Virus record (IMG/VR): IMGVR_UViG_3300009370_000001
DNA from: a virus
Taxonomy: Duplodnaviria > Caudoviricetes
Direction: 5' to 3' (one strand)
DNA length: 64,000 bases
The position numbers and the translations under genes are program-made. The notes beneath the pieces were generated by a model that worked only from the letters and a program-made list of their open reading frames with translations, had not been told where the DNA came from and did not search any database. This document shows, in pieces, positions 9,704-52,784 of the stretch (within the stretch, counting starts at the first letter, position 1; each line of letters opens with the position of its first letter).

Positions 9704-10675
9704 ATGTCTTTTGATAAGTGGCGTGAGTTTTTAGCGGAAGCTCCCCGGCGCGGTAGTCCTGCCGGGATACGGCGCTCTCTAAATACCCTGTTAAACACAG
9801 GACCACATAGCGATGGAAGTCCGTATAAAGATGAAGATGAGCATCTCAAAGGAAAAAAGAATCGCAATCAAATATCCGCGCCACCGGGTGCGCCGGGTGG
9901 GGGCAGCATTGGTGCATCGGGCCCTGCGTTAGAAGAAGAGGTGGAAGAAGAAACCTTTGAGATGCAGCCGGAACTTCAGCCGGAGATTTGGATAGATAAT
10001 CAGATATGGCCTGAAGTACGCAAACGCTTTTTAGAAATCGTGGAAGATTTTCTAGACGGCCTAGACCTTAATGTTCCAATTGAAGACGTGCGACTAACGG
10101 GATCGCTAGCGAACTATAACTGGTCTAAGTATTCGGATGCCGATCTGCATATCGTTGTAGACTTTAGCGAAATAGATGAAGATATTGAGCTAGTCAAAGC
10201 TTTTTTCGACGCAGCCCGGGCCCGATGGAACGACCACCATCAGATTAATGTTTATGGGTTTGAAGTGGAACTATACGTAGAAAACGTCGGGGATATTCAT
10301 CATTCATCTGGTGTGTATTCGGTCGACCAGAACAAATGGATTATTGAGCCTACTCCGCGAGATGTAGAAATTGATTTTATTACTGCTCGCAAGAAAAGCG
10401 ATGATATTGAAACGCAAGTGAACTTAGTAGAACGTATATTGCGTAATGGAAACACGCAAAGCGCCCTCAAGATTATAGAGCGCATTAAACACAAAATCCG
10501 TCGTATGCGACAAGCGGGACTGGATAGCCCCCAAAGAGAATTTTCACCAGAGAACATAGCTTTTAAAATATTGCGTCGTAACGGAACTTTAGAGCGGTTA
10601 AGCGGGCTGAAGCGCAATGCATACGACACCCAAATGTCACTCCCCGAGGAAGTCGATGAAGTTTCAAGCGATTAA
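9704..10675 (+). CDS. Pol-beta superfamily nucleotidyltransferase with N-terminal leader
   Basis: LTGSLANYNWSKYSDADLHIVVDF (GS...DxD) and VELYVE; N-terminus MSFDKWREFLAE. Confidence 0.85.
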   Translation: MSFDKWREFLAEAPRRGSPAGIRRSLNTLLNTGPHSDGSPYKDEDEHLKGKKNRNQISAPPGAPGGGSIGASGPALEEEVEEETFEMQPELQPEIWIDNQIWPEVRKRFLEIVEDFLDGLDLNVPIEDVRLTGSLANYNWSKYSDADLHIVVDFSEIDEDIELVKAFFDAARARWNDHHQINVYGFEVELYVENVGDIHHSSGVYSVDQNKWIIEPTPRDVEIDFITARKKSDDIETQVNLVERILRNGNTQSALKIIERIKHKIRRMRQAGLDSPQREFSPENIAFKILRRNGTLERLSGLKRNAYDTQMSLPEEVDEVSSD

Positions 10676-13159: not shown

Positions 13160-13247
13160 GGCCGAGTGGTGGAATAGGTAGACACACCGGACTTAAAATC
13201 CGTTGATCATTATGATCGTGAGGGTTCAAGTCCCTCCTCGGCTACCA
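13160..13247 (+). tRNA. tRNA-Leu(TAA)
   Basis: Acceptor GGCCGAG/CTCGGCT, anticodon loop CT-TAA-AA, long variable arm, T-loop TTCAAGT, encoded CCA. Confidence 0.95.
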
Positions 13248-13259
13248 CCTTACATCTTC

Positions 13260-13303
13260 TTGACAACTTTTGGCTTGACCACACAAACTGGGCATGCTAT
13301 ATT
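13260..13303 (+). promoter_or_regulatory. Double-box promoter element directly after tRNA-Leu
   Basis: TTGACA 13260, TTGACC 13275, 17-nt spacer, TGC-TATATT 13298. Confidence 0.75.
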
Positions 13304-13360
13304 ATGAACACTGACCACATTAACATCTTCACCGACGAAGAAATCAACAAGGAGCTACGG

Positions 13361-13744
13361 ATGGGCACCCGCTCACACATTTATATTGAAACCGAACCAG
13401 GAAGATTTCTGGGAACTTACTGTCAGTTTGACGGCTATCCTTCCCATATGTTTCCACAACTTGAAAAGCGCAGCCATGACGAAGTATATAGTATTATCGT
13501 CAGAGGACAAACACGCGGTGGCTTGGTAGGCATTGCTGCTACGCCGTCTTCTCCTATTGAATATCAAGATGGAATGGGGGAAGCATCTTTTCTTTTTAAT
13601 CCGACAGACTATCTCGAAAGCACCTGCGTTAACTACGTTTATGTAAAGCGACTGGATGGAACGGTACTATGGCGGGAAACCCGCAACGCTGAACCTGGAA
13701 TCCCGATGCCCTGGTATAACACAGCACCCGAGGAGGAAGAATAA
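13361..13744 (+). CDS. Conserved phage hypothetical protein (MGTRS...YCQFDGYP family)
   Basis: AAGGAG RBS before ATG 13361; YCxxDGYP motif. Confidence 0.7.
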   Translation: MGTRSHIYIETEPGRFLGTYCQFDGYPSHMFPQLEKRSHDEVYSIIVRGQTRGGLVGIAATPSSPIEYQDGMGEASFLFNPTDYLESTCVNYVYVKRLDGTVLWRETRNAEPGIPMPWYNTAPEEEE

Positions 13745-13745
13745 A

Positions 13746-13967
13746 ATGATGTTTGAAGCAGGCGAAAAAGTTATTGTAATGGCAGGCAGTGTTCATTCTC
13801 CGTCCTATCTACAGGGCGAGAGCGGAATGATCCTTGAAGTATCGGGATCATCTGATTATGTACCTGAACATTATACTATTAAGTTTGAGAAAGAGACTCA
13901 TATTCTTTATGGGTCCGAACTACGGAGAGAAGAAAGTGAACAAGACGTGACGTATGAACTAAAATAA
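13746..13967 (+). CDS. xGDLV-like small protein
   Basis: FEAGEKVIV...GMILEV. Confidence 0.6.
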   Translation: MMFEAGEKVIVMAGSVHSPSYLQGESGMILEVSGSSDYVPEHYTIKFEKETHILYGSELRREESEQDVTYELK

Positions 13968-13973
13968 GTGGTT

Positions 13974-14128
13974 GGCCCCTGGAGTAATACTTAAGGACAT
14001 TCGGGTTCAATGTCTACAATGAACCTTGTACCCATCTGGTGAGGTGAAACCTGCGAGGGTAATGCAGGAGTGGAAAGTAGGCTAACGAGTGGAAGACGCG
14101 GTGAAGACAGCGTTCCTCTCCAGGGGCC
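13974..14128 (+). ncRNA. Candidate structured non-coding RNA (family not recognised)
   Basis: Intergenic; perfect 11-bp closing stem GGCCCCTGGAG/CTCCAGGGGCC; internal hairpins with complementary loops. Confidence 0.6.
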
Positions 14129-14144
14129 TTTACATTGATTTGAC

Positions 14145-14173
14145 TTGACAAAGAGAAGAAAATGAGATATATT
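14145..14173 (+). promoter_or_regulatory. sigma70-type promoter
   Basis: TTGACA-17 nt-TATATT; ATG 14180 at the expected +1. Confidence 0.65.
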
Positions 14174-14179
14174 ATACAT

Positions 14180-14386
14180 ATGAAAAAGGGTGACGTAGTT
14201 AAGTTTGTTTCTCCCCCAGGACTTCACCACTTGGATTCGGTGATGAACTGGAAACAGCAGAGTCCTGGTTTGGTCGTGGGGAGCAAAGACACTTCTCTCA
14301 AGAAGCGGTCTTATGAAGTGCTGTGGAAGAACGGCGAAAGAACTTTTGAATGGGAATCATATTTGGAGATTATTAGTAAAGCATGA
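14180..14386 (+). CDS. xGDLV-family protein, probably leaderless
   Basis: MKKGDVVKF...GLVV...YEVLW...YLEIISKA. Confidence 0.65.
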   Translation: MKKGDVVKFVSPPGLHHLDSVMNWKQQSPGLVVGSKDTSLKKRSYEVLWKNGERTFEWESYLEIISKA

Positions 14387-14562
14387 TTTATACAGTTATT
14401 TATACAGATTACAAAAACGATTTGAAGTCCGAGGTAACGGATGGTCCGATGGACCGACCCGAAGCCTGGAAGGAAATGAAACGAGAATACGGCACAGTGC
14501 TGGCAATGGTGCCTGGGAGTCATCCCGTGTATACCAGCGGCTCAATGGAGCGAAAAGATTAG
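14383..14562 (+). CDS. Hypothetical 59-aa protein (below the ORF-track cutoff)
   Basis: ATGA overlap with the previous gene; MIYTVIYTDYKNDLKSEVTDGP... Confidence 0.55.
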   Translation: MIYTVIYTDYKNDLKSEVTDGPMDRPEAWKEMKREYGTVLAMVPGSHPVYTSGSMERKD

Positions 14563-14622
14563 GAGACTGCTTACAGAGCATAAACAGTAAAGCTGGACGC
14601 TCAAAACATTAACCCCTATCCT

Positions 14623-14698
14623 GCGCCGGTAGCTCAGGGGTTAGAGCGTTGTTCTTATAAAGCAAATGTCGGTGGTTCAAGTCCACCCCGGCGTACCA
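14623..14698 (+). tRNA. tRNA-Ile(TAT)
   Basis: Acceptor GCGCCGG/CCGGCGT, anticodon stem TTGTT/AGCAA, loop CT-TAT-AA, T-loop TTCAAGT, CCA; 76 nt. Confidence 0.92.
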
Positions 14699-14705
14699 TT
14701 TTTTT

Positions 14706-14915
14706 ATGACGAGGATATATACTAATATGAGCCATCACTATGGAGAATACTGGTCAAGCTGGAGCCACCAGCCTGCCACACCTAAAGAGCCTGAACTGCT
14801 TGAAGAGATTAAAACATTTCTTTTGACTCTCCATGAGAGTGATAAAGCTGCGGAGTTACTCCAAAAAATAGAGGCGGAAGCCGCCAAAGCGAATAAGCCT
14901 AAAACTGATTTTTAA
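14706..14915 (+). CDS. Hypothetical protein
   Basis: ORF between tRNAs. Confidence 0.55.
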   Translation: MTRIYTNMSHHYGEYWSSWSHQPATPKEPELLEEIKTFLLTLHESDKAAELLQKIEAEAAKANKPKTDF

Positions 14916-15139
14916 TGTTACCAGAGATTGACTGGCTTGAACACCAAATAGCGCAACTGCGAGAGCGGTGCGATCAGCTTGAGAAAGAAAACTTTGAGCT
15001 TAAGCGATGCATTGGCCGAGCTATCACAAACCTGGAACGAGATAATCAGCAGACCCGAGAATACATTGAGAAAGAAGAAACGAAAATCGTAGCGTTCGCC
15101 CCCAACTTCAAGAAGCCGAAGTGGGAAACGCAAGATTAA
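14915..15139 (+). CDS. Hypothetical coiled-coil protein
   Basis: TAATG-coupled ORF. Confidence 0.6.
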   Translation: MLPEIDWLEHQIAQLRERCDQLEKENFELKRCIGRAITNLERDNQQTREYIEKEETKIVAFAPNFKKPKWETQD

Positions 15140-15150
15140 CCTTTCAATTT

Positions 15151-15226
15151 GGGTCCATAGCTCAATAGGTAGAGCATCGGACTTTTAATCCGCAGGTCGT
15201 GGGTTCGATTCCCACTGGACCCACCA
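15151..15226 (+). tRNA. tRNA-Lys(TTT)
   Basis: Acceptor GGGTCCA/TGGACCC, loop CT-TTT-AA, T-loop TTCGATT, CCA; 76 nt. Confidence 0.95.
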
Positions 15227-48034: not shown

Positions 48035-48292
48035 ATGTCGTTAAATAAAGTCTGGAATGATTTCTTACTGAATGAAAATCTTCAAGATAAAAATATTTTT
48101 ACTTATTTGCAAGGTTTAGAAGAAATAATCTCCAATATTAAGCCAAAATCGATGACAGAAGAGCGTCGTTTGTCTTTGGCGAGGCAGCATCTGAAAGAAG
48201 CTCGCAGATCTGCACGCAGAATGCAAAACGAACTCCAAGTTCTAGAAGAAAGGCTTAATGTATTGGAAGAAAGCCTAAACGAGGGCTCGTAA
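48035..48292 (+). CDS. Helical protein with leader-like N-terminus
   Basis: MSLNKVWNDFLLNE; AAGGA RBS. Confidence 0.7.
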   Translation: MSLNKVWNDFLLNENLQDKNIFTYLQGLEEIISNIKPKSMTEERRLSLARQHLKEARRSARRMQNELQVLEERLNVLEESLNEGS

Positions 48293-50217
48293 TGGGTGGT
48301 GCGGCGGGCCATATGGCTCATCCCTTCGATTTGGGATGGGTAAACTCGGGTTCTGACCTCTTAGATTTCTTTGAGAAGGCAAAAACCTATGTTGAGAAGA
48401 AGGGCGCTGGCTCCGTCAAGATAGATGGCGTCAATGTATCGTTCAAAGTGGTCGGAGACGACGAAAACAAGCAATTTGCGGTTGATCGCGGCTCCTTAAA
48501 GCCAATAGACATCGATGGAATTACGATGGACCGCGTTGATGACCGTTTTCCAGAAGGCCACGGCATGCGGCCGGCGATCCGGACCCTTTTGACCATTTTA
48601 AATGAAGCTTTGCCCGATATTCAACAAGAATTAGAAGAATTAGGCATGTGGGACGACCCATCGCGCTTTTTAAACACCGAATATGTCGCCGGAACGACAA
48701 ATGTGACTCAATATGATGAAAATTTCCTTGCAATTCACGGATTAAGCCAATTTTATCAAAAAACCGCTAAATCTGGACCCAGCAAAGGAAATATACGCCC
48801 TGGAATGGCGCGCCCGGAAGGAGTAAAGGCTCCAAGCGTCGAAGTGGCCTATGATCCTCAAACAATGGACAAATTAGTCACGAAACTCAATTCTGTAGCC
48901 GAAAACTACGGTTTTAAGGTATATGGCTCCGTTCCAACCGAAAAAATCGACGAAATCGACTTTTCATCGACTTTATCGCAACCTTTTACAGTAAACGTGT
49001 CTCCTGATCGCCAAATCACTAAATCTTTGGAAGAATGGTTGCGCGAAGTCCAAAATCCACGTTATAAAGTGGTCAAATTAAAAGATGGGACCAAAATACA
49101 CTCTCTACATAAACAACTTTATCTTAATATCTTAAATGGAGAGACCCCAGTGGTAGATTTACTTGATCAGGCAGATGCGCAAGATGCTATTTATGGTGCA
49201 GTGCTGATGCACGCCACTCGAATGCTTGGAAATGATGTTATGAAGGCCCTGACAAGCCCGATGGGCGATGTAATGAACCATGAAGGTATTGTTATGCGAG
49301 ATGAGAAACTTTTTGGACCAAATCCTGTCAAAATCACCGGAGACTTTATTGTTGGTAACCTCGGAGGCGGATTTGGACAGGTCACTGAAGAAGAAGAAGA
49401 AATAGAGGTCATCGACAACGAAGATGCAGATCCTGTGGGAGAATTTGCTGGTGGTGAAACGGTTGCTATTGTCCCCGGCGCATTTAAGCCGCCACACCGC
49501 GGCCATCTTGCAATGGTAGAACAATATGCCGATGAAGCAGACCGTGTAATAGTGTTAATTTCAGCCCCTGTGTTAGCAGGTAGAAAACTACCTAATGGGC
49601 GCGAAATTACTGCTGCAGATTCTCAAAAGATTTGGGAATTGTATGTTGATCACTTACCAAACGTTGAAGTAGAGATTTCCTCGCATGCTTCTCCCATAAA
49701 TGCAGCTTATGAATATGTTGGAGAGGAAGGACCACTCAATGCGGGCGATAGTGTTATTCTCGGCTGCAGCAAAAAGGATTGTGATTGGAAACGATGGATG
49801 GGCGCTGAAAAATATATTAAAGATGGGGTAAGCCTGCTACCGCCCGAAGGTGTTTCCCCGACATATCGGGATAATGGTGAGCCATTTAGTGCTACCGAAA
49901 TGAGAGACTTGCTTGGGCGCGCACAAGAAGACTCAGATGCAATTGAAGAATTAGAAGAATTTACCGGCGAAGATAATGTTTTTGATGTTTTGTCTATTTT
50001 GGGCCTAAATGTTGGTTTAAGTGAGATGTCTTCAATGGGTGGCGGGGCCGTCCAAGGTGCAGCCGTAGGAGCCAAGGGAGGACCTTGGCGCCACACTGAT
50101 ATTGAAGCCGAGAACGAAAAAGAAAAGAAACGTAGTAGACTTAAAAAAGAAAATATAGATTTATCTATGGTTGATGAAGTAATGAGACTATTTATGGAAA
50201 GAGGGATTATCCAATGA
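48292..50217 (+). CDS. Ligase-like nucleotidyltransferase domain fused to an HxGH (cytidylyltransferase-like) domain
   Basis: GGAAGHMAHPFD, KIDGVN, HEGIVMRD, PVKITG; PGAFKPPHRGH, FSATEMRD. Confidence 0.75.
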   Translation: MGGAAGHMAHPFDLGWVNSGSDLLDFFEKAKTYVEKKGAGSVKIDGVNVSFKVVGDDENKQFAVDRGSLKPIDIDGITMDRVDDRFPEGHGMRPAIRTLLTILNEALPDIQQELEELGMWDDPSRFLNTEYVAGTTNVTQYDENFLAIHGLSQFYQKTAKSGPSKGNIRPGMARPEGVKAPSVEVAYDPQTMDKLVTKLNSVAENYGFKVYGSVPTEKIDEIDFSSTLSQPFTVNVSPDRQITKSLEEWLREVQNPRYKVVKLKDGTKIHSLHKQLYLNILNGETPVVDLLDQADAQDAIYGAVLMHATRMLGNDVMKALTSPMGDVMNHEGIVMRDEKLFGPNPVKITGDFIVGNLGGGFGQVTEEEEEIEVIDNEDADPVGEFAGGETVAIVPGAFKPPHRGHLAMVEQYADEADRVIVLISAPVLAGRKLPNGREITAADSQKIWELYVDHLPNVEVEISSHASPINAAYEYVGEEGPLNAGDSVILGCSKKDCDWKRWMGAEKYIKDGVSLLPPEGVSPTYRDNGEPFSATEMRDLLGRAQEDSDAIEELEEFTGEDNVFDVLSILGLNVGLSEMSSMGGGAVQGAAVGAKGGPWRHTDIEAENEKEKKRSRLKKENIDLSMVDEVMRLFMERGIIQ

Positions 50218-52176: not shown

Positions 52177-52402
52177 ATATAACGGACACTATATCATGGG
52201 CGACTTGGTCGGCTCACACAAAACAGAAGCTGCCGCCATGAAAAAAGCAAAGAAAGAAATAAAATTTAAATTTTCTGTGAGAGAAAAGAAAAAGAACGAG
52301 ATACTTATTTGGCTTGATGGTGAAAACCACGAACCACTAGGAGTTATCACACACGAATTAAAGGGGACGAAACGGCCTCGACAGGGTAAGGAGAAAGGAT
52401 AG
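52160..52402 (+). CDS. Hypothetical basic protein; 3' end overlaps the tmRNA
   Basis: MWKVYKYNG...; last 40 nt lie within the tmRNA 5' end. Confidence 0.6.
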   Translation: MWKVYKYNGHYIMGDLVGSHKTEAAAMKKAKKEIKFKFSVREKKKNEILIWLDGENHEPLGVITHELKGTKRPRQGKEKG

Positions 52403-52784
52403 TGCAAGTAGTCAAACGTACCAGCAGACTTTAAATGCAGATACAAAACATAATTGCTAATAATAATAACAATTTCGAATCTGTCCGCTTAGCGGCTTAA
52501 TCGGGTGGTTACCTAAAGCCATCAATCCAATTTAGGTATTTATCGCAACAGGATGGTAAGCGATATCTTATAGCCATCTATCTTTTTGTTAGTTTCTGAT
52601 AGCAAACTGACGCATCGATTGGAAAGGGTGAGGGTTTAGCTTGTCAGTCGATTAATCACCCCGCTTTTGTTGATTTTCACATAGCGGATGCCGGCCGTCA
52701 GACCGGTAAAAATCAACTAAACTTGTGAATGACTTGAATTTTAATATGCTTTGGACGCGGGTTCGACTCCCGCCGTCTCCACCA
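52363..52784 (+). ncRNA. ssrA: tmRNA
   Basis: 5' GGGGACGAAACGGCCTCGAC; 3' GGACGCGGGTTCGACTCCCGCCGTCTCCACCA; acceptor GGGGACG/CGTCTCC with G3-U; tag ANNNNNFESVRLAA* at 52456-52500. Confidence 0.96.

Follow-up and report, generated by a model that had tools for sequence, protein, structure and literature searches.

Two small RNAs that are not tRNAs, rnaC (species 1) and rnaD (species 2), are encoded in the tRNA cluster of phage T4, on the same strand as the tRNAs. They are about 120-140 nt long and are excised from the precursor transcript of the tRNAs; their annotation reads no more than "small, stable RNA." To our knowledge, their function is still unknown, decades on. GOLLD and ROOL are orphan, structured and pseudoknotted RNAs of phages and prophages that often lie beside tRNA islands; their function is unknown, and many GOLLD members are longer than 800 nt (bioRxiv 10.1101/2024.12.08.627333). 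Two other kinds of RNA are relevant for their architecture. YrlA, a bacterial Y-RNA-like RNA, has a structured module closed by a long helix that joins its 5' and 3' ends. SAM-I-type riboswitches have a multi-helix junction closed by a P1 helix, a pseudoknot between a hairpin loop and a joining strand, and many invariant unpaired nucleotides.

Here we describe a structured RNA family that was not described before, with members of about 140-156 nt and without an Rfam match. One member, hereafter the element, lies at positions 13974-14128 of the window, which is the whole stretch of 64,000 nucleotides of viral DNA that was analysed. Like the T4 RNAs, the element is a small non-tRNA RNA of a phage tRNA cluster on the tRNA strand, and by analogy of genomic context, not by homology, rnaC and rnaD are its nearest analogue. 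T4 rnaC has a canonical T-arm and an acceptor-like end, whereas the element matches no tRNA model and is centred on a pseudoknot. When a covariance model of the element (R1, see below) was run against the T4 tRNA region with filters off, the best score was 7.7 bits and did not fall on rnaC or rnaD. GOLLD and ROOL are several-fold larger and form multimeric cages; the element is ~150 nt long, and the Rfam models of GOLLD and ROOL have no match on it. The element shares the long closing helix with YrlA but has no tRNA-like T/D module, and the YrlA model gives weak matches (26 bits) only on the adjacent tRNA genes, not on the element. Neither a TROVE (Ro) nor an RtcB protein is among the best 25 of the 36 Pfam families matched in the window. 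All three features listed above for SAM-I-type riboswitches are found in the element, but no sequence or model match connects the two, the P1 of the element is much longer, and it has no expression platform. Unlike riboswitches, its place relative to promoters is not consistently that of a 5' leader. A published catalogue holds 8,495 candidate structured RNAs from IMG/VR, each present in at least 3 IMG/VR regions (PMC10690425). The element is unlikely to be one of the unnamed entries, since only 2 IMG/VR contigs carry it and 3 regions are required.

The locus in the window

The gene content of the window resembles that of a large phage genome, and nearly every long ORF is on the + strand. The ORFs include typical phage auxiliary genes, for a PhoH/PIN protein, a GroEL-like chaperonin, and NUDIX and cytidylyltransferase-like proteins. 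Rfam 15 and ARAGORN find four tRNA genes and one tmRNA gene. No homologue of the window DNA was found among GenBank phages by megablast or blastn, its 866-aa protein had no tblastn match, and the best identity of its PhoH protein to any record is at most 38%. The features around the element are as follows.

Positions 13160-13247: tRNA-Leu(UAA), 5' of the element
Positions 13974-14128, + strand: the element, intergenic, 155 nt, bounded by an ORF stop at 13967 and the next gene
Positions 14145-14173, + strand: sigma-70-type promoter, outside the RNA and serving the next gene; TTGACA-17-TATATT, 11 of 12 positions matching; kept in clades A and B
Positions 14623-14698: tRNA-Ile(UAU), 3' of the element

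The sequence-only reading from which this analysis started had described an intergenic segment located among tRNA genes, and both points hold. The ORF on the 5' side stops at 13967, and the ORF on the 3' side starts at 14162 or, more likely, at 14180. The -10 hexamer of the promoter ends at 14173, 6 nt before the ATG at 14180. The relatives use the equivalent ATG with the same 6-nt spacing after the -10, so the gene probably starts at 14180 and not at the 14162 given by the ORF finder, and its mRNA may be leaderless. This gene (14180-14383) belongs to a group of small ORFs with a common N-terminal G-D-L-V motif, a row of which, paralogous and 60-85 aa long, is seen at positions 355-1625 of the metagenome locus L016.

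The order of the tRNA genes, Leu-UAA, Arg-UCU, Ile-UAU and Lys-UUU, is the same in the window (13160-15226) and in the loci L069, L073, L094, L100 and L102. All four conserved phage tRNAs read A-ending codons. In bacteria, it is uncommon for tRNA-Ile to have the anticodon UAU. The tmRNA gene is full-length (52363-52784; Rfam 112.5 bits), and ARAGORN gives its tag peptide as ANNNNNFESVRLAA. Weak Pfam signs of nucleotidyltransferases were seen at 9704-10672 and 48292-50214 (NTP_transf_2 at E = 0.0012, below the cut-off, and a cytidylyltransferase-like domain), which together with the tRNAs and the tmRNA suggests a theme of RNA metabolism in this phage.

Homologues in marine metagenomes

Homologues of the element were collected by several routes. 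The 73-aa protein encoded upstream has 36 metagenome relatives, whose contigs carry the element directly 3' of the gene. By a second route, a 22-nt pattern from the most conserved stretch gave 41 metagenome loci, most with the whole element. Two routes did not use this bait, namely a gapped pattern combining the P2 loop with the pseudoknot strand and a profile of the small downstream ORF, and they added three more divergent versions (L094, L102, and L100/L101). The ~33 distinct element sequences fall into five clades and all come from marine sources (Tara Oceans, the deep sea and hydrothermal vents). The diversity that they cover is modest, as there are about five clades and clade A supplies most of the sequences.

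Clade A: window-like sequences; one member on a 190-kb contig
Clade B: L015 and L016
Clade C: L069 and L073
Clade D: L094 and L102
Clade D2: L100 and L101

Searches of other collections returned little. The window's copy of the element has no blastn match in GenBank phages. In IMG/VR, the first sequence pattern gave no match and neither did the downstream 74-aa protein; the gapped pattern gave 24 loci, of which 2 have the element, L094 (new) and L003 (found earlier). Two loci retrieved by a 17-mer pattern, L002 and L004, are chance matches and not homologues. Three pattern matches in prokaryote genomes are not homologous either, as one fits R1 only over the 27-nt bait (21 bits) and the other two do not fit it at all.

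The element is present in one copy in a 98-kb contig, which CheckV rates as 50% complete, so the genome is likely to be near 200 kb. The carriers of the element are uncultured, large (about 200 kb) marine phages with one copy per genome. Among clade-A relatives, the DNA identity of the element is about 87-93%; for the flanking 73-aa protein, the amino-acid identity drops to about 67-73% in those relatives where the element is still present at this site. The sequences of the element differ by indels of 1, 2 and 5 nt, thus it does not code for protein.

Secondary structure and covariation

The fold derived from the alignments has the following parts, numbered by position in the window.

Positions 13974-13984, + strand: P1 5' strand, closing helix, perfectly paired with 14118-14128
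Positions 13985-14002, + strand: J1/2, A-rich linker, variable in sequence and length (13-21 nt)
Positions 14003-14009, + strand: P2 5' strand, pairs with 14020-14026
Positions 14012-14017, + strand: pseudoknot 5' strand, within the 10-nt P2 loop, 6 bp with 14077-14082
Positions 14020-14026, + strand: P2 3' strand, pairs with 14003-14009
Positions 14027-14049, + strand: joining region, highly conserved within clade A, with a possible 3-bp P3
Positions 14030-14032 with 14038-14040, + strand: P3, possible mini-hairpin of 3 bp; between-clade alignment ambiguous
Positions 14050-14068 (14050-14054 with 14064-14068), + strand: P4 hairpin, 5 bp, 7-9 nt loop, variable
Positions 14069-14090, + strand: conserved single-stranded region with the pseudoknot 3' strand, many positions invariant in all clades
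Positions 14077-14082, + strand: pseudoknot 3' strand, nearly invariant, about 60 nt downstream of its partner
Positions 14091-14116, + strand: P5 hairpin, with lower stem, internal loop, 3-bp upper stem and invariant 10-nt loop
Positions 14118-14128, + strand: P1 3' strand, partner of 13974-13984

The minimum free energy of the + strand of 13974-14128 is -58.3 kcal/mol (z = -3.3), and none of 200 shuffled sequences folds as well. When members of clades B, C and D were folded as single sequences, P1, P2 and P5 were seen again, with z values of -3.7 to -4.1. The covariance model R1 was built from a first alignment with P1, P2, P4 and P5, and RNAalifold, run independently, found the same four helices. 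Counting was then done on an alignment (A6) that was fitted to the model and covers all clades in 28 distinct rows. With the pseudoknot included, 99.3% of the cells of the structure are paired in A6, against 92.8% in column shuffles and 31-50% in controls with slid partners. Compensatory changes are found at 17 of 35 pairs, compared with 6.3 in shuffles, and 0 of 500 shuffles reach the observed values; for the nested helices, not for the pseudoknot, these counts come from an alignment fitted to the same helix model. Judged by this comparison of sequences, 13974-14128 is a real, strongly conserved folded RNA whose fold is well supported by covariation.

P1 is paired in 100% of cells, and 10 of its 11 pairs are compensatory (A6, 28 distinct sequences). 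It has 11 bp in the window and 12-15 bp in the other clades, and its sequence exists in five unrelated versions in clades A, B, C, D and D2, G+C-rich and always with GG as the first letters. P2 is paired in 98.5% of cells, with one compensatory swap from G-C to A-U (L016) in addition to alternation between G.U and G-C. Two U.U mismatches were seen in the P2 of L015 (199-222), whereas the near-identical L016 (199-222) keeps P2 with A-U; the L015 mismatches may be an assembly error or belong to a decaying copy. P4 is also paired in 98.5% of cells and has two compensatory pairs (in clades B and D2). Its loop has 2-nt indels within clade A, and clade C has one 9-bp hairpin in place of P4. The lower stem of P5 is paired in 98.8% of cells, has two compensatory pairs and is written in different letters in clade D. 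The upper stem of P5 is paired in 100% of cells, and this stem and its 10-nt loop are invariant in every member; both were part of the search pattern for the 41 loci, and their invariance is to be read from the loci that were retrieved by protein or by other patterns.

The pseudoknot helix was absent from the model used for aligning, and its evidence is therefore the most informative. It is paired in 99.4% of cells of A6. In L073, three of the six pairs are altered and all stay paired (A-U to G-C, U-A to U.G, and U.G to C-G), and one-sided consistent changes from U.G to C-G or U-A are found in L052/L110, L033, clade B and L068. The sole exception is an A.A at one position in L068, where both partners have changed.

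Other pairings were considered along the element. Across clades, no pairing of J1/2 is conserved. An extra helix of 4-5 bp between the 3' end of J1/2 and 14086-14090 is 90% paired in clade A only and fails in B, C and D. Within 14027-14049, each clade allows a short hairpin of some kind, and P3 is a candidate pairing only. RNAalifold proposed a hairpin of 14069-14071 with 14081-14083; it lacks compensatory changes and is in competition with the pseudoknot, and the latter was preferred. An extension of P5 (14087-14094 with 14113-14120) was rejected because it shares 3 nt with P1 and breaks down in clade C. The positions flanking P5, 14090 and 14117, co-vary as U/U or A/A (once A with C) and are both lost in some members, which looks like a non-canonical junction contact.

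Three of the stems proposed in the sequence-only reading are part of this fold. The perfect 11-bp stem that it described is P1, present, conserved and covarying, and the same is true of its CCTGC/GCAGG hairpin (14050-14054 with 14064-14068), which is P4, and of its interrupted hairpin GGAA..CGC/GCG.TTCC (14091-14099 with 14110-14116), which is P5. Two further hairpins, GACATT/AATGTC and TACAA/TTGTA, are present in the window with complementary loops as described but are not conserved (71% and 77% of cells paired), and one pair of these two small hairpins is broken in 21 of the 25 distinct sequences in an earlier alignment (A3). The kissing-loop pair built on them is not supported, because both hairpins presenting the loops are unconserved and the complementarity of the loops is that of the two strands of one hairpin, P2 (14003-14009 with 14020-14026). 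The long-range contact that is supported instead is the pseudoknot between the P2 loop and the downstream strand (14012-14017 with 14077-14082).

G.U pairs are frequent and conserved, occurring in 25 of 28 sequences (as U.G) at one pseudoknot pair and in 24 of 28 at the base of P2. On the other strand these pairs would be A.C mismatches, thus the element is an RNA of the + strand. The same observation bears on the idea that the locus is a signal at the DNA level, such as a protein-binding site, a recombination site or an origin. The long inverted repeat could form a cruciform, but pairing is kept through G.U, which is mismatched in DNA as well as on the opposite strand, and covariation extends to the pseudoknot and to the internal helices, where a DNA site would have no need of it. 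We therefore regard a DNA signal as very improbable.

Relation to known RNA families

When the window was searched with the 4227 models of Rfam 15, only the tRNAs and the tmRNA passed the gathering thresholds. At E<=10 on 13700-14400, the best matches reached 16 bits and were to eukaryotic snoRNA or lncRNA models, i.e., noise. For the distant homologues of clades B, C, D and D2, nothing was found on the element. The strong covariation together with the Rfam result, at gathering score, at E<=10 on the region and on the distant homologues, bears out the initial proposal of a structured ncRNA of no known family. Its suggested likeness to the SRP Alu domain or to purine riboswitches is not supported. 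No SRP model matches at E<=10, no purine riboswitch model matches, the hairpins with the supposed loop-loop contact are unconserved, and a length of ~150 nt differs from the ~70-nt three-way junction of purine riboswitches. A tRNA or tRNA-like RNA was also rejected, as ARAGORN and RF00005 find the neighbouring tRNAs and not the element; T-loop-like letters at 14005-14011 are base-paired within P2.

Dozens of unpaired nucleotides are invariant in the alignment of the element. With its compact pseudoknotted core, these could be expected of a new class of catalytic RNA, self-cleaving or other, which would help to cut the polycistronic transcript of the tRNA region, where tRNAs and mRNAs have to be released from their transcripts by cutting. 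Phage DNA commonly encodes small ribozymes, which also counts in favour of such a role. However, no Rfam ribozyme model matched even at E<=10, the tested small self-cleaving classes (hammerhead, twister, twister-sister, pistol, hatchet and HDV-like) being without an Rfam match, and ~150 nt exceeds the size of most such classes, although the glmS and Varkud ribozymes are larger. Hammerhead-like letters near 14036-14048 have neither the essential A nor a stem II and are missing in clade D, and no candidate cleavage site can be named. A new ribozyme is thus improbable in our view, and less likely than the cis-acting role discussed below.

Genomic context and possible roles

The surroundings of the element differ among clades. 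A strong sigma-70-type promoter precedes the element in clades D and D2, with its end ~25 nt 5' of P1; on the 3' side, ~27 nt separate the element from a small conserved ORF, after which come three tRNAs. In clade C, the element lies directly after a gene and 25-50 nt 5' of the same small ORF as in clades D/D2. In clades A and B, an extra small gene with its own promoter (11/12 consensus match) is inserted right after P1. In clades A, C, D and D2, tRNA-Leu(UAA) lies on one side of the element and tRNA-Arg(UCU)/Ile(UAU)/Lys(UUU) on the other, and in clade B no tRNA is found within the fetched 4.5-4.7 kb. The orientation of the element is always that of the neighbouring genes. From clade to clade, the spacers that lead from the element to the start codon have unrelated sequences, and a comparison across clades revealed no conserved terminator or anti-RBS pairing 3' of the element.

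Another possibility is that the element has no specific partner and is just a stabiliser or terminator that closes the upstream operon. It lies directly after a gene in clade A, the window has a weak terminator-like local hairpin at 14112-14137, made of the 3' strands of P5 and P1 and followed by a T-rich tail, and a run of T follows P1 in clade B. The hairpin at 14112-14137 could form only at the expense of P1 and P5, and it is not kept in clades C and D, where no U-tract follows P1. Moreover, the element opens a transcription unit in clades D and D2 instead of ending one, and a simple terminator has no need of 150 nt, a pseudoknot and invariant loops. The candidates for an intrinsic terminator are thus a weak one in the window, a U-run in clade B and none in C and D, and there is only a slim chance that the element is of this kind.

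The main rival explanation is that the element is a cis-acting RNA of its own transcription unit, either a riboswitch or protein-binding leader that serves the small ORF and the tRNAs downstream, or a processive antitermination or processing element of the put/EAR type. A put/EAR-type element would act on the transcribing RNA polymerase and thereby let it pass the structured tRNA cluster. Consistent with a cis-acting role, no other feature lies between the element and the strong promoter or upstream gene that precedes it in clades C, D and D2, and it stands 25-50 nt before the conserved small ORF and its three tRNAs. It is always co-oriented with the genes, and aptamers that bind ligands or proteins typically have a size, a pseudoknot and invariant junction nucleotides like those of the element. 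On the other hand, no expression platform is conserved, given that neither a terminator nor an anti-RBS element is seen on the 3' side and the spacers are unrelated. In clades C and D the element could lie in a leader, but in clades A and B a separate promoter intervenes between the element and the next gene, thus the element is not in the leader of that gene, and such a position is excluded there. The switching P1 of known riboswitches is far less stable than a G+C-rich helix of 11-15 bp such as that of the element. Furthermore, the small downstream ORF also occurs without the element, in L106-L109. Taken together, a cis-acting role is a serious alternative that we nevertheless consider unlikely.

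With moderate confidence, we favour the explanation that the element, as a member of the new structured-RNA family, is a free-standing, stable small RNA of the tRNA cluster. The element would be transcribed together with the co-directional genes and tRNAs around it. P1 would then bring the 5' and 3' ends together and shield both, and with both ends protected the element would probably accumulate as a discrete stable small RNA, whose ends would lie at P1. A long, G+C-rich terminal helix starting with GG is what one would expect of a stable, end-protected small RNA. The invariant unpaired nucleotides and the pseudoknot core would probably bind a protein, another RNA or a small ligand in trans. 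The sequence of the element is kept with a promoter before it (clades D and D2) or after it (clades A and B), and with or without tRNA genes nearby. Since it is kept whatever adjoins it, and no terminator or anti-RBS pairing is conserved on its 3' side, the element would act independently of the neighbouring gene.

A more far-reaching explanation, to which we attach rather little probability, is that the element represents a new catalytic or ligand- or protein-sensing class of RNA specific to giant marine phages. For example, such an RNA could be a ribozyme that processes the transcript of the tRNA cluster, or it could serve as a decoy or adaptor and, together with the phage tRNAs, the tmRNA and the nucleotidyltransferase-like enzymes, defeat attacks of the host on translation.

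Significance

Orphan structured RNAs beside phage tRNA genes are a recurring puzzle, and even for GOLLD and ROOL the formation of cages was shown only recently. The element is a small and tractable example of ~150 nt, with a well-defined fold and a pseudoknot supported by covariation, and its dozens of invariant unpaired nucleotides are a signature of specific binding or catalysis. It is a ready target for in vitro work. Because the lineage that carries it has no cultured relative, the RNA offers an entry point to the biology of such large phages.
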